Shown: in pieces, positions 7,182 through 54,697 of the stretch
Layout of the letters: every line of letters begins with the position of its first letter
Position numbering within the stretch: the first letter of the stretch is position 1
DNA from: Elusimicrobia bacterium UBA5214
GTDB taxonomy: Bacteria; Elusimicrobiota; UBA5214
DNA length: 64,000 nt
Assembly (NCBI GenBank): GCA_002412545.1
Contig: DHVG01000013.1
Coordinates: 129,315-193,314 of the forward strand
Direction of reading: 5' to 3'
The notes under the pieces: generated by a model
Databases searched by the model: none
The model's input: the letters and a program-made list of their open reading frames with translations, nothing else
What the model was told of the DNA's origin: nothing
Translations under genes and position numbers: made by a program

Positions 7182-7890
7182 TTCTATTTTTCTCCTTAGA
7201 ACCGAGGTAGAGATAAATGTAAAATTAATCCCATATTTTAAGTATCTTGCTGACCGTTATTGTCCAAGTTAACAAAGTAACCCCAATATTTGGACAGCAA
7301 GGTGTTTTTGGGAACTAGCAATGAAGATTTAAACTTTAAGTTGTTGATTAATAAATCAAAAAATAACTAAACTCGCCAATATTATTTGTAAATCGGGTAC
7401 AGTAGAAATAGAGGAAACTATTAGTAAAAAGTCGTACCACCCTGTCTATTTTGGAATCTTTTGAGTAAATACGGTGCGGTTTGCTTAAAAATTTCTGTTT
7501 AGAATAAAATCCTCTGTTTACGGTGTTAGCGAATAGATGTCCTTTATTATAAAGTTATAAAATTATCCTTAATTATTATTTTAACAAAAATATTGGGAAA
7601 AAACAAGGTTTTAGGTAGGAATTTAATTCAGAAAACTTGTTAAGACCACTCAAAGATTAGGACATAAGTTAGAATTGGTAATTAAAAGTTAAGGTTCTAT
7701 TTGAAAGAAATAAGCAATGATATTCTTTTCGTTCACTTACAGGCAAAATTTTTGTTTATCCGAATATTTATAGGACAAATTGATAACTGTTATTTTTTTA
7801 TTCTTTTTTCAATTTAATCTCTTTTGAATTAAACTTTATACGTCATTTCAGTACAATCATCTTTTTTGTATCCACAAAACTACGGCTTCA

Positions 7891-7937
7891 CCCTCACCTT
7901 TTTCCTCTCCCCTCGGAGGGAGAGGGTCGGGTGAGGG
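7891..7937. repeat. GC-rich nested inverted repeat (two-stem hairpin) just past the stop of the LamG/T9SS gene
   Basis: Outer stem ccctcacc (7891..7898) pairs with ggtgaggg (7930..7937); inner stem cctctccc (7904..7911) pairs with gggagagg (7918..7925). Strongly GC-rich against an AT-rich background; no U-tract follows on the minus strand. Confidence 0.8.
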
Positions 7938-7945
7938 GCAATCTT

Positions 7946-8952
7946 TTACTTCAATACTACCATTTTCTTAGTGTCAACAAAACTACCGGCTTTCACCTGG
8001 TAGTAGTAGATTCCTCTTGAGAGTTCGTCACTTTGATTAAATACAACTTTATGCGGACCAGCCGTTTGCCACTCGTCAACCAAGGTTGCTACTTCCTCTC
8101 CACCAACATTGTATAACTTTATGGTTACCTGACAATCCTGAGCAACGGAATACTCAATTGTTGTTGCTGGATTAAACGGATTTGGATAATTTTGTCCCAG
8201 AGAGTTGACATCTGCAGTTGCTGATGGACTAACTACGATTGTCCGTGGCTTACCGGGTTTCACATTTCCTTCGTAATGTGCTTTAATTTCTTCAGCACTT
8301 AAAGCACGGTTGTAAACCCGAGATTCATCGATTGTTCCTTTGAACCAATTGTAATCTCCGGAAAGACAGTGTGCTCCAATTTGTAAAGGAACATCATTAG
8401 TCACTATATGACCTGAAATTAGTCTGTTGCCTGTTTCAACACCGTTTACATATATTCGCTCAACAGAACCATCGTATGTCCCAACGATATGCGCCCACTC
8501 ACCAAAGGTAAGATTAACTGACGAAACTATGTAATTCCAAGTATTAGTATAAAGTACTAACTGAGGAGTTATTCCATTAGGTTGCAACTCCAGTACATAA
8601 CCACTTCATCCTCCCCACTTTGAACGATTATTTGATGATCTCCCGTTGTTTTAATAGGCTTAATCCACGCTTCAATTGTAATTGCATCTGTAATATCGAA
8701 ATTACTCGAATCATTCACACGTACATAATCATCCACTCCATCAAAACTTAGTGCTTTGCCAACTTTACCATCTACCCAGGTCGCACCGTAGATTGTTCCA
8801 TCATTACTATTTCCTGAATAGTCATGGGCGATTGTTCCTTCCCCTTCATCAAAACTCCAGTAACCAACTAAACCTTCTTCTGCTTTAAGCCGCTGTGTAA
8901 GAAGAAATAGTCCAAATTCTACCATAACCAAAAATCCAAAAATTTTTTTCAT
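7946..8952 (-). pseudogene. secreted LamG (concanavalin-like) domain protein with T9SS C-terminal sorting domain, split by an apparent frameshift
   Basis: Track ORFs 8569..8952 (signal peptide, LamG N-half GLVGYWSFDEGEG...IEAWIKP) and 7946..8587 (LamG C-half ...GEWAHIVGTYDGS..., then NYPNPFNPATTIEY...YYYQV T9SS-type tail) overlap by 19 nt in different frames. The downstream ORF starts at TTG. Frame switch near 8587..8625 beside a C-rich run; could be a real pseudogene or an assembly indel. Confidence 0.55.
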
Positions 8953-9130
8953 CGGTTTCTCTCCCTCCTTTTTTAGAATTTAGCGACTTGAAAGTCAACA
9001 CTTCTTTGGCTTGTCCCGATGAATCGGAACGCTACCTCCCTTTGCGGACTAAAGTCCGCCATTACGGAAAGATAATAAATCTCAAAATGTCGACTTTCAG
9101 AAAATTTCCTTAAACAAAAAACAGATGAGA

Positions 9131-9183
9131 CCCTCCCCCCACCGCTTTGCTTCGCAAAGCGAAGCAGTGAGGATCAGGGTGAC
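9131..9183. repeat. GC-rich palindromic element, degenerate relative of 7891..7937, containing a perfect hairpin
   Basis: ccctccccccacc ... gtgagg...cagggtgac flanks; internal perfect hairpin gcttcgc-aaa-gcgaagc at 9149..9165. Another perfect hairpin gcggac-taaa-gtccgc sits at 9044..9059. Confidence 0.6.
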
Positions 9184-9393
9184 ACACTCAAGGATGGACA
9201 CCTAGCACTTTACCGCTTAACGCTGACAACTGTCTTTATTATACCCCCCCAGAAAATTTGCCAAGAGTTTTTTGAGAATCTTTTAGATTTGAAAAAATCA
9301 GTTGATGAGGTCTACTGAAAGGAAAACTAAGATGTGAGTCAGGTTGGCAAAGAAATTTTTAGACAGGTAAAGGACGAACATAAAGGATTAAAA

Positions 9394-10218
9394 CTATTCG
9401 GATAACCCACTTTTAATTTCTTGAAGAGAGATGCTTTCTTTAAGAATAAAGAAAAGTCCAAGGAGAGTAACTAAAAGAAAATTAAAGAAATGGTGAGTTA
9501 AAGTAAAACTTAAGGCAAGTTCTTTGTTAATTTTATAAAAACTTAAAGCCAACACACCAAAAAATTCCCATGTCCCGATGTAACCCGGAGAAGAAGGAAT
9601 AGTTACACTTACTCCTACAATTCCTAAAAAAAACATCGCCGCGCTAAAAGGTAACTTCATATTGAAAGCGAAAAACATTACATAAACGCCTGAAATGTAA
9701 ATAAACCAAAGAATAAACGAAATAAAAAAAATCTTTAATAGAAGGTGCCCTTGTCGTAAAACTTTAAATCCGCTCACAAAAGAATTAAAAAGTTGGACAG
9801 ATCTCTCAGCAAGTTTTACGGAAAAAAAAGAAATTATTTTCTTCCCTAATTTCTCAGTTTGTTTCTCAAACTTAAGCAAAAAAGTAAAAAAAACTGCTAA
9901 ACCAAAAATAACAATAACCAAAGCAAAAATATTTATCTCTTTAGGAAGGACAAAAAAAAATGAAATGATAAAAAAAATAGAAATTAAGAAAATTAGGTCA
10001 GTCAGCCGCTCTAAAACTACAGTAGAAAAGACCGTACTTTTACTAATTTTTTCTTTTCGTCCTAAAAAATATGCCTGGACTAAATCACCAAAACGAAAAG
10101 GAAAAAGATTATTTGCTGCCTGACCAACACAGGTTGCGGAAACTAAACTAAATAAAGGTACCTTTTTTTGGGGAAGAAGCAAGTAACACCAACGAATACT
10201 ACGGACAAATAAACCCAA
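9394..10218 (-). CDS. flippase-like membrane protein (lysylphosphatidylglycerol synthase TM-region family, UPF0104-like); true start probably upstream
   Basis: Multi-TM protein with FGDLVQAYFL and PSSPGYIGTWE motifs. Track start is TTG; the frame stays open ~50 codons further upstream (..KKALWFGLLISVFFLVLVFYKIDFKEFF..) with no ATG/GTG/TTG. Confidence 0.6.
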   Translation of the reverse strand: MGLFVRSIRWCYLLLPQKKVPLFSLVSATCVGQAANNLFPFRFGDLVQAYFLGRKEKISKSTVFSTVVLERLTDLIFLISIFFIISFFFVLPKEINIFALVIVIFGLAVFFTFLLKFEKQTEKLGKKIISFFSVKLAERSVQLFNSFVSGFKVLRQGHLLLKIFFISFILWFIYISGVYVMFFAFNMKLPFSAAMFFLGIVGVSVTIPSSPGYIGTWEFFGVLALSFYKINKELALSFTLTHHFFNFLLVTLLGLFFILKESISLQEIKSGLSE

Positions 10219-10361
10219 AACACCGATTAGTAAAGCAAAAATTACATAAAAAAAATTGACTTTTTTTAAAGTAGAGAAAAATTCTTTGAAATCAATTTTA
10301 TAAAAAACTAAAACTAAAAAAAATACACTAATCAGTAGTCCAAACCATAAAGCTTTTTTCT

Positions 10362-11270
10362 TTATTTTTTTTCTCCTTCTTTTGAGACAATTTTATCTTT
10401 CTCTTTGAATAATTCAGCAATACCGGAAATCGCTCCTAAAACACCGCTTGTTTCTAAAGGTAAAAATATTTTTGTTGCCTGTCCTTCAGCAATTTTACCT
10501 AATGCCTCAAGATATTTAATCGCAATTAGGTCATTAGTTGGTCTACCTGAATGAATCGCATTAAAAACAGTTTCAATTTGATATTTTTCTGCTTCAGCAA
10601 CTTTTTTAATCGCTTCGGCTTTACCTTCGGCACTGAGAATCGCTGCTTGTTTTTCGCCTTCAGCTTTAGTAATTGCCGCTTGACGAAAACCTTCAGCTTC
10701 TAAAATTACTGCTCGTTTTTCGCGTTCTGCTTTCATCTGTTTAGACATCGCATCAGTTATATCTTTCGGTGGTTCAATTTTTTGGATTTCCACCCGGGTA
10801 ACCTTCACACCCCATTTGTCGGTTGCTTCGTCAAGGACACGGCGCAGTTGGTCATTAATCCTTTCTCTTGAAGTTAAGGTTTGGTCAAGTTCCATATCTC
10901 CAATTACATTGCGTAAATTTGTTTGGGCTAATTTAAGTGCGGCTAAAGCAAAATTGGCTACATTATAAATTACTTTAAAGGGGTCAGTCACCTGAAAATA
11001 AATTACCGCGTCAACCGTAACTAAAACATTATCTCTGGTAATCACATCCTGTGGTGGAACATCAATTACCTGTTCTCTAATGTCTACTTTTCTTATCGTC
11101 TCCAGCATCGGAATAATGAAAGCCAAACCCGATTCTTCGGTACGATTGTATTTACCTAATCTTTCTACTAACCCCTTTTCATAAGGACGAATAATTCTTA
11201 ATGCAGTTCTTGCGAAAATAAGTAAAAAAATTATTGCTAAAAATAAAAATGGCACCGGTAACCCTTCCAT
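10362..11270 (-). CDS. SPFH/band 7 (stomatin/prohibitin-like) membrane protein
   Basis: N-terminal TM helix, SPFH core (RTEESGLAFIIPMLETIRKVDIREQVIDVPPQDVITRDN...), repetitive AEGxxQAAI C-terminal coiled region. Confidence 0.85.
   Translation of the reverse strand: MEGLPVPFLFLAIIFLLIFARTALRIIRPYEKGLVERLGKYNRTEESGLAFIIPMLETIRKVDIREQVIDVPPQDVITRDNVLVTVDAVIYFQVTDPFKVIYNVANFALAALKLAQTNLRNVIGDMELDQTLTSRERINDQLRRVLDEATDKWGVKVTRVEIQKIEPPKDITDAMSKQMKAEREKRAVILEAEGFRQAAITKAEGEKQAAILSAEGKAEAIKKVAEAEKYQIETVFNAIHSGRPTNDLIAIKYLEALGKIAEGQATKIFLPLETSGVLGAISGIAELFKEKDKIVSKEGEKK

Positions 11271-53464: not shown

Positions 53465-54697
<1,233 letters not shown>

Follow-up and report, generated by a model that had tools for sequence, protein, structure and literature searches.

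A copy of an apparently undescribed palindromic repeat family in the putative leader of a LamG gene from Elusimicrobiota

The 441-bp spacer (8953-9393) that separates a flippase-like gene from a LamG gene contains a copy of a dispersed palindromic element, the core of which is found exactly in at least 114 stretches of species-representative genomes. This spacer most likely consists of ordinary regulatory sequence and junk DNA located where synteny breaks, and is not an RNA gene. The reading that we favour, with modest confidence, is a promoter followed by a 5' UTR of about 270 nt in which sits a passenger copy of a repeat similar to the Rickettsia palindromic elements (RPEs). On the minus strand, which carries the genes on both flanks, the order would be the 3' flank of the flippase gene, a sigma-70-type promoter cassette and the ~270-nt leader of a frameshifted gene for a LamG/T9SS-cargo protein; the dominant stem-loop of this leader would be the passenger repeat, with an invariant core closed by a C-run/G-run stem. 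Most of the structure signal is due to a repeat that sits within an ordinary promoter and leader, and the spacer is therefore not to be listed as a new sRNA or riboswitch. The main interest lies in the repeat family, since the identical string is present in Omnitrophota, Planctomycetota, Elusimicrobiota and other uncultivated lineages.

Setting and anatomy of the spacer

The window, by which we mean the whole 64,000-nucleotide stretch of Elusimicrobia bacterium UBA5214, had been annotated before from its letters. This first-pass annotation described the spacer as a structured region with several perfect hairpins, and its reading of the sequence proved accurate: the hairpins gcggac-taaa-gtccgc (9044-9059) and gcttcgc-aaa-gcgaagc (9149-9165), the C-rich run ccctcccccc (9131-9140), the C7 run (9244-9250) and the bounds of the spacer (flippase-like stop, LamG ATG at 8952-8950 and GGAGGG) were all found in place, and the spacer has no ORF of 60 aa or more, only ORFs of 40-41 aa touching the region. 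RNase P, SRP, tmRNA and 6S, which had not been recognised by eye, were not recovered by Rfam or ARAGORN either. The Rfam 15 covariance models gave zero matches at gathering thresholds over the whole window and, at E up to 10 in the region 8850-9500, only four chance-level matches (13-16 bits); ARAGORN found neither tRNA nor tmRNA. No small ORF with a start codon that could encode a leader peptide was found in the leader. The annotation had passed over the minus-strand location of all the relevant genes, the overlap of two 8-bp hairpins and the long-range helix 8989-9003/9085-9099 (Table 1).

Table 1. Features of the spacer and its flanking genes, numbered along the window
Feature	Position	Strand	Remarks
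LamG gene (Laminin_G_3 and T9SS C-terminal sorting domain)	7946..8952	-	frameshift near 8569-8587, two ORFs
Ribosome-binding site GGAGGG	8963..8968	-	10 nt before ATG 8952-8950
Second folded leader domain (predicted)	8989..9099	-	15-bp long-range helix, 9085-9099 with 8989-9003
U-rich tract UUUUUUGUUU	9112..9121	-	begins 8 nt past base of element hairpin
Dispersed palindromic element copy	9130..9180		core 9144-9165; flanked by C 9143 and AG 9166-9167
Conserved leader start AAAGACAG..GTTAAGCGGTAAAGTG	9205..9237	-	aligns with L005 and L126 paralogous leaders
Promoter cassette CTC-TTGGCA-AATTTTCTGGGGGGG-TATAAT (putative)	9238..9267	-	recurs in three paralogous copies
Minus-strand cassette segment CTCTTGGCAAATTTTCTGGGGGGGTATAAT	9267-9238	-	
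Weak hairpin TCAGT...ACTGA, 5 bp, then T6	9292..9318	-	possible terminator of flippase-like gene, read from sequence
Flippase-like gene (LPG_synthase_TM)	stop at 9394	-	upstream gene

The relatives with a flippase 76-85% identical keep the upstream genes and have a family-2 glycosyltransferase (GT2) gene 20-150 nt past the flippase stop. These closest relatives lack both this spacer and LamG, and synteny therefore breaks at the flippase stop. A remnant of the GT2 gene was rejected as the origin of the spacer, because tblastn gave only a 10-residue match that corresponds to the translated element. At the upstream end, the hairpin with T6 was not flagged by the terminator scan because its stem has too few G-C pairs. 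Concerning LamG, the Pfam Laminin_G_3 profile is divided between the two ORFs (positions 1-49 in ORF 8569-8952, positions 60-151 together with Por_Secre_tail in ORF 7946-8587), and the homologs of LamG each consist of one protein of ~330-345 aa. Four assemblies agree on the split gene model, with identical products; phase variation at the frameshift was rejected, the site having no homopolymer run. Homolog searches found no close LamG ortholog, the next full-length match being 40% identical, and the exact-protein look-up returned only the same gene, in two assemblies with an identical spacer and in two Logan contigs. The window matches a JGI contig and NCBI assembly GCA_002400355.1, and NCBI gives an Elusimicrobiota MAG as the source of its LepA protein. 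The two assemblies that span the stretch (L001 and L002) are identical to the window over the spacer, including a G7 tract.

This G7 tract is the C-run 9244-9250 of the first-pass annotation, which lies between the -35 (9259-9264) and -10 (9238-9243) of a cassette that would act as a sigma-70-like promoter: TTGGCA agrees with the consensus at 5/6 positions and TATAAT at 6/6. The -35/-10 spacer of 15 nt is suboptimal beside the 16-18 nt of sigma-70-type promoters, which counts against the preferred reading, and because of this length the scan omitted the cassette. The cassette (CTCTTGACAAATT..CTGGGGGGG..TATAAT) occurs once in the window (0.04 expected by chance) and recurs at L005:12183, L126:2131 and L126:4671 in one related Elusimicrobiota genome, where it precedes an NHL/T9SS gene, an operon ending in a T9SS protein and a methyltransferase gene. 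The -35/-10 spacing in these paralogous copies is 17-20 nt (17 or 20, 18, 20), and G-tract length explains part of the variation. A metagenome scan for the promoter returned only the known relative and two unrelated promoters. Phase-variable promoters, such as those of porA and opc in Neisseria and fim in Bordetella, carry a homopolymer tract between -35 and -10. The cassette resembles them in the G7-G8 tract of its spacer, in the surface or secreted-protein genes behind it and in a spacing that differs among paralogous copies; it differs in that no length polymorphism is seen at one locus, L001 and L002 both having G7.

The first ~30 transcribed bases that the cassette would give are common to the window and the paralogous copies. 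The L005 leader (~125 nt) is homologous at both ends, i.e. at the promoter and leader start and at TTCAAGTCGC before the ribosome-binding site, and it contains neither the central hairpin with its element, nor hairpin 9044-9059, nor the long-range helix. A T-run stands at the equivalent place in this leader, which has no element; the element therefore did not bring in the U-tract, and the tract 9112-9121 predates it. In an intrinsic terminator the U-tract follows a G+C-rich hairpin by 0-2 nt; here U6 starts 8 nt past the stem, and the terminator scan found only a weak, G-U-rich alternative stem of 7 bp that abuts the tract, at 9143-9124. An independent sRNA gene of about 110-120 nt could be drawn from the promoter (9238-9267) to the hairpin and U-tract (9112-9180), with near-consensus -10 and -35 boxes, a GC-rich segment (53-58% vs 34% for the genome) and a stable terminal hairpin followed by U6. 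We hold it to be very unlikely, as the position of the U-tract is poor for intrinsic termination, protein-coding operons elsewhere begin with the same promoter and first transcribed bases, the 5' part (9191-9235) does not fold stably (z = +0.7), the transcribed segment has no homolog as a unit among the fetched loci and Rfam gives no match.

When folded, the minus-strand RNA of the spacer (-127.6 kcal/mol, z = -3.2) was equalled by 0/100 shuffles, whereas the plus-strand RNA was no better than shuffles (z = -1.0). At the central site two perfect 8-bp hairpins overlap (9143-9161 and 9148-9166). The 15-bp long-range helix encloses three small hairpins, including 9044-9059 and 9013-9030, and the region 8953-9100 reaches -49.3 kcal/mol, a value equalled by 0/200 shuffles (z = -4.1); no further copy of the domain 8989-9099 was found among all the sequences compared, and it is absent from the L005 leader. 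A perfect 6-bp hairpin such as 9044-9059 is at chance expectation, a shuffle yielding 1.1 hairpins with stems of 6 bp or longer on average, and other copies of it or of the other small hairpins were not found in the sequences compared. The overlapping 8-bp hairpins of the central site are not expected by chance, 0.6% of shuffles having as many stems of 7 bp or longer as the spacer. Small stems such as 9044-9059 fit the idea that the hairpins arose by chance in an AT-rich spacer, an idea hardly credible for the spacer as a whole: the core of the central hairpin is identical in at least 114 other places, with the characteristic flanks of the family. Chance is refuted for 9130-9180 and holds only for 9044-9059 and similar small stems.

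A leader acting as a cis-regulatory RNA (attenuator, thermosensor or riboswitch) is in our view unlikely. In such a leader, hairpin 9130-9180 and the weaker GGUGGGG/UCUCAUC hairpin by the U-tract would compete over read-through, and the domain 8989-9099 would control access to the ribosome-binding site; the 7-bp hairpin with U-tract (9143-9124) has its 5' arm sequestered by the element hairpin. The folding advantage of the minus strand, the z near -4 of both subdomains and the substitutions in the element stem, which yield G-U pairs in the sense RNA only, are consistent with such a role. However, the gene to be regulated is frameshifted, Rfam is empty even at E up to 10, the sole homologous leader (L005) lacks the element as well as hairpin 9044-9059 and the long-range helix, and the main hairpin is a repeat that also occurs elsewhere, in unrelated settings and in either orientation. 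The first-pass proposal of a small RNA or a long structured 5' UTR thus survives in part. A long 5' UTR is plausible, the promoter cassette lying ~280 nt upstream of the LamG start, but neither a small RNA gene proper nor a leader of conserved structure is supported by Rfam, by the relatives, which lack the spacer, by LamG, which has no close ortholog, or by the L005 leader, which lacks both hairpins. The strong form of the structured-RNA reading fails because no structure is conserved in relatives, and the perfect hairpins that had been taken as its signal come down to one stem at chance level (9044-9059) and one copy of a dispersed repeat (9149-9165), not a structure specific to the locus.

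In our preferred reading of a promoter and leader with a passenger repeat, the copy would add a very stable hairpin ~50 nt downstream of the likely transcription start, which may incidentally stabilise the transcript, pause it or partly terminate it at the U-tract 8 nt downstream. The substitutions that leave G-U pairs only in the sense RNA are a hint of such stabilisation or partial termination, though they number only two. Against this reading, the sense-only G-U pairs and the U-tract that follows may allow a selected RNA role, e.g. attenuation, and the domain 8989-9099 folds well (z = -4.1).

Structure and distribution of the palindromic element

The copy in the window combines the hairpin 9149-9165 with the C-run 9131-9140. 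Its 22-nt core, GCTTTGCTTCGCAAAGCGAAGC, reads as pentanucleotide units (GCTTT GCTTC GCAAA GCGAA GC) and can pair in two 8-bp registers, CGCTTTGC/GCAAAGCG or TGCTTCGC/GCGAAGCA, with a 5-nt bulge on one side either way. Beyond the closing stem, which pairs the C-run 9135-9141 with 9168-9174, there is an outer stem of 5 bp (ACCCT/AGGGT). Folding energies are -33.6 kcal/mol for the minus-strand hairpin (z = -3.9) and -26.5 for its plus-strand counterpart. In the plus-strand 3' arm, two G-to-A changes leave G-U pairs only in the minus-strand, LamG-sense RNA. With a covariance model built from 119 copies, the window copy scores 55.4 bits (E = 4e-11) and no second copy is found in the 64 kb; the core, the promoter and the small hairpins likewise each occur only once in the window, and window shuffles lead one to expect no chance match to the core.

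Over the family, the element measures 40-60 nt and follows the consensus CCCC-NN-N-C-core-AG-NN-GGGG (117 copies with full 30-nt flanks). The closing stem covaries (0.203, vs 0.078 when shuffled, a value reached by 0/500 shuffles, and 0.04-0.07 with slid partners), and none of the six frames of the consensus contains a stop codon. Variants differ in the number of pentanucleotide units, or carry compensatory changes by which both pairing registers are preserved; among the secondary copies inside fetched loci, 11 are variant and 3 exact. Kink-turn, sarcin-ricin and integron attC motifs were compared with the core by eye at the level of their consensus, and none fits.

A first lead to the family came from a local BLAST that placed the hairpin sequence in the GT2 gene of relative L005. 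The exact 22-nt core was then scanned against one genome per GTDB species; all counts are lower bounds, and diverged copies are under-sampled because of the exact 22-mer requirement. According to the depositors' record titles, the loci belong to Omnitrophota (at least 51), Planctomycetota (at least 42), NPL-UPA2 (at least 6), Thermodesulfovibrionia (at least 3), Ratteibacteria (at least 2), Desantisbacteria (at least 1), Paceibacterota (at least 1) and unclassified MAGs (at least 8). Among the matches listed, several MAGs hold 5-8 or more exact copies each and two of the records are complete chromosomes. Strings of 22-38 nt are identical between phyla, and this identity could reflect strong selection on a protein-binding RNA or DNA module. 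Core matches are absent from the phage, viral and plasmid collections IMG/VR, INPHARED and PLSDB. A sequence search of the literature returned no paper with the core, topic searches returned only general papers on REP, RPE, MITE and mini-hairpins, and no Rfam family covering the element was found; judged by the literature and Rfam searched, the repeat family is apparently undescribed.

Insertion sites and possible mobility

By a crude ORF call, which makes the genic/intergenic split approximate, most copies are intergenic. They show no orientation bias with respect to co-directional genes (17 same, 21 opposite), are found in convergent and divergent spacers alike (6 each), and have a weak bias relative to GC skew (65:42, p = 0.03, uncorrected). 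Clustering of the neighbouring ORFs gave no enriched gene or transposase, the largest cluster covering 5 of ~114 loci. Nearly all loci hold a single copy, which sets them apart from CRISPR repeats; where 2-3 copies are present, they are 1.6-4.3 kb apart in mixed orientation with housekeeping genes between, and L070 has three copies among pyrK, pyrD, H+-pyrophosphatase and pyrF.

Other copies lie inside functional RNAs and proteins. Four loci with common flanking genes hold RNase P RNA, in which the element occupies different helices in different RNAs: (i) the P3 tip, with a copy in L042 and a variant core in L100, (ii) the P12 tip of L042, with a perfect-hairpin variant, and (iii) the P13 region, with an inserted copy in L019 and L064. 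The Moco riboswitch aptamers of L018 and L101 each have a copy as the tip of their third hairpin. At least 8 copies are in frame within real enzymes, in four different reading frames; the in-gene count was based on Pfam-verified cases only. The insert lies within the span of a Pfam domain in an aconitase-family protein, NadE, QueA and Fmt, and domains or matched stretches flank it in PEP carboxylase, a GFO/IDH/MocA oxidoreductase and a radical-SAM/DUF2344 fusion; GT2 is the eighth in-frame case and was shown by comparison with relatives. The inserts encode the peptides RFASQSEA, ASLCEAK, LRFAKQS and ALLRKAKQ, and the element can be inserted in proteins because its consensus is stop-free in six frames.

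These sites bear on whether the element hairpin is a terminator or insulator against read-through from the flippase-like gene, and the family terminator-like hairpins in general. A stable hairpin that works in both directions could stop transcription arriving from either side, some copies abut tRNA genes and directly follow them (in L015 the tRNA ends 9 nt from the core), and in 10/117 copies the stem, read one way or the other, is immediately followed by a T-run. We find this quite unlikely, since the remaining 107/117 have no T-run, termination would be lethal inside ORFs and RNase P RNA, divergent intergenic regions are as common as convergent ones, and the window hairpin is located downstream of the promoter of the next gene.

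The distribution and one empty/filled comparison, at GT2, suggest a mobile element. Of the three relatives with the GT2 site, L006 is empty, L007 has the same outer arms with a different tip, and L005 has the arms and the core. In another MAG (L097), the same 60-nt composite as in L005 is found in an aconitase-family gene, with the core inverted relative to the arms. About 23% of copies stand at the apex of a longer palindrome, vs 5% expected. Held against the criteria for MITEs, the whole element is one inverted repeat, and the GT2 insertion replaces 12 nt with no visible target-site duplication; the loci compared showed neither a transposase nor target-site duplications nor any recent identical insertion. 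The family would behave like selfish or neutral mobile DNA, with copies settling where an extra hairpin is tolerated, i.e. in intergenic spacers, at the helix tips of structured RNAs and in surface loops of proteins.

More tentatively, and at a little short of even confidence, we propose that this undescribed palindromic family spreads horizontally across phyla by seeking or converting hairpin tips or, alternatively, that the core is a module bound by a conserved protein. If hairpins are sought, the targets would be the tips of RNA helices, terminators and palindromes, and possible routes are template switching between C-run/G-run stems or a structure-specific enzyme. The absence of stops in six frames could let the element colonise essential proteins and ribozymes alike.

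Comparison with described repeats

Among the systems compared, the family seems to work most like the RPEs, which are palindromic repeats inserted in frame in unrelated genes and also present in non-coding DNA (PMC10969869). The likeness is seen in the copies in frame in PEP carboxylase, NadE, QueA, the aconitase-family protein, Fmt and GT2. It is one of described behaviour, and length sets the element apart from RPE families 1-10: RPEs measure ~100-150 bp and are described from Rickettsia, whereas the element, at 40-60 nt, is about a third as long, with an invariant core of 22-26 nt. Unlike RPEs, it is found in at least 7 phylum-level groups and at the helix tips of RNase P RNA and a riboswitch.

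REP, REPIN and BIME sequences are GTAG- and CGTC-tagged repeats (PMC3733652). Like them, the element is a short imperfect palindrome with many copies per genome and no dependence on orientation, and some copies are nested in larger inverted repeats or stand at terminator-like positions. As to the tags, GTAG is found in 0/117 copies and CGTC directly 5' of the core in 11/117. In contrast to REPs, the tip of the hairpin is conserved and the stem variable, and copies lie inside genes and RNAs instead of keeping to extragenic DNA; most REP families keep to one species or genus, whereas the element sequence is common to several phyla. REP and REPIN elements are 20-40 nt long and associated with RAYT, an IS200-like transposase; no RAYT gene was seen among the neighbours of the ~114 element loci.

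STRRs are reportedly located in helix P12 of the RNase P RNA genes of heterocystous cyanobacteria, a finding attributed to Vioque in 1997. They and the element are alike as repetitive DNA that a working RNase P RNA accommodates in one of its peripheral helices, but STRRs are tandem heptanucleotide repeats of cyanobacteria only and the element is a single palindromic module that replaces the P3, P12 or P13 tips. Finally, d(GCGAAGC) is an 'extraordinarily stable' DNA mini-hairpin with occurrences at phage and plasmid priming sites (PMC13037366). GCGAAGC is present in both strands of the core and, in one register, caps an 8-bp stem (CGCTTTGC-GAA-GCAAAGCG); this is a likeness of sequence only, the review covering priming sites and not dispersed repeats.

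The presence of the repeat inside an RNase P RNA, a riboswitch aptamer and core enzymes extends to several phyla a phenomenon described for RPEs. The repeat also points to some mechanism that would carry it between distantly related bacteria living in the same habitats. In practice, such a repeat may break metagenome assemblies, inflates structure scores in ncRNA screens and puts spurious peptide inserts in protein alignments. Two Logan contigs stop inside the spacer, both at window position 9163, and several MAG contigs end within ~100 nt of an element copy; the identity of strings of 37 nt across phyla may contribute to these contig ends.

Forms and genomic setting of the palindromic element

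The dispersed palindromic element occurs in composite and variant forms. In many Omnitrophota and some Planctomycetota, an extra outer layer, GAATTnnCCCC...GGGGnnAATTC, surrounds the element (seen in the core flanks at L013, L045, L070, L076, L077, L107, L108, L111 and L113, among others). Separate hairpins of the form ACTTAYG...CRTAAGT adjoin these GAATT-wrapped copies, often with a ribosome-binding site directly after; the whole resembles an intergenic repeat of composite, cassette-like build. Long nested palindromes of repeated modules, with the core at the apex, were found in Ratteibacteria (L025, L119) and Planctomycetota (L046, L085, L094, L115); the modules combine a C-run with CTTGCTGTTCT on one palindrome arm and a G-run with AGCAAG on the other. 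On either strand, pyrimidines predominate in the 5' arms and purines in the 3' arms. The tip of P12 in the RNase P RNA of locus L042 is a perfect-hairpin variant, CCCCCACTGCTTCGCAAAGCGAAGCAGTGGGGG, which is devoid of the extra GCTTT unit and may be a simpler ancestral form of the element.

Some contigs end in or near a copy of the element. Both Logan contigs of the same spacer (L003 and L004), which come from different sequencing runs, end exactly at position 9163, in the middle of the core, and in several MAGs (for example L039, L095, L071 and L093) a copy lies 26-100 nt from a contig end. Such ends could possibly be due to k-mers common to different species or, another possible cause, to reduced coverage at a very stable hairpin.

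Predicted promoter cassette and folded domain of the leader

The conserved cassette (see table) is a predicted promoter that would drive secreted proteins. The -35/-10 spacing varies between paralogous cassettes (15, 17 or 20, 18 and 20 nt). This variable spacing and the G-tract between the two boxes recall phase-variable promoters, but no length polymorphism of the tract was seen here at any single locus. The folded domain of the leader (about -49 kcal/mol, z = -4.1), closely followed by a ribosome-binding site, was found at the LamG locus only, with no counterpart in the paralogous leader of the related genome (L005), and could be a further inserted element or a regulatory structure.

Coordinates of the features (window positions unless a locus is named)
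Feature	Location	Strand	Description
G-tract (G7-G8)	9244-9250; L005:12190-12215; L126:2140-2165; L126:4680-4700		between -35 and -10 of the conserved promoter cassette
Folded domain	8989-9099	minus	111 nt; closed by a 15-bp long-range helix; 3 hairpins inside
G+C-rich inverted-repeat pair	7887-7925 and 53484-53522		TTCACCCTCACC...CCTCTCCCCTCGGAGGGAGAGG
P12-tip variant	L042:2508-2545		RNase P RNA
LamG/T9SS gene	7946-8952	minus	frameshift near 8569-8587
Flippase-like frame	9394-10362	minus	precedes the spacer

Flanking genes and a second repeat candidate

The frameshift splits the LamG/T9SS gene into two ORFs of 127 and 213 aa, and no homopolymer run was found at its site. This split gene model and identical products are common to four independent assemblies; the homologs are unsplit, each a single protein of 330-345 aa.

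The flippase-like frame stays open right back to where the preceding Band_7 gene stops; its alignment to homologs begins at homolog residue 30. Because no ATG, GTG or TTG occurs in this frame before 10218, its start is non-canonical or lost. In relatives DegT directly precedes the flippase, whereas in the window the Band_7 gene lies between them.

Finally, the G+C-rich inverted-repeat pair, one arm of which lies just 3' of the LamG stop and includes a terminator-like hairpin, may represent a second repeat family of the source genome.
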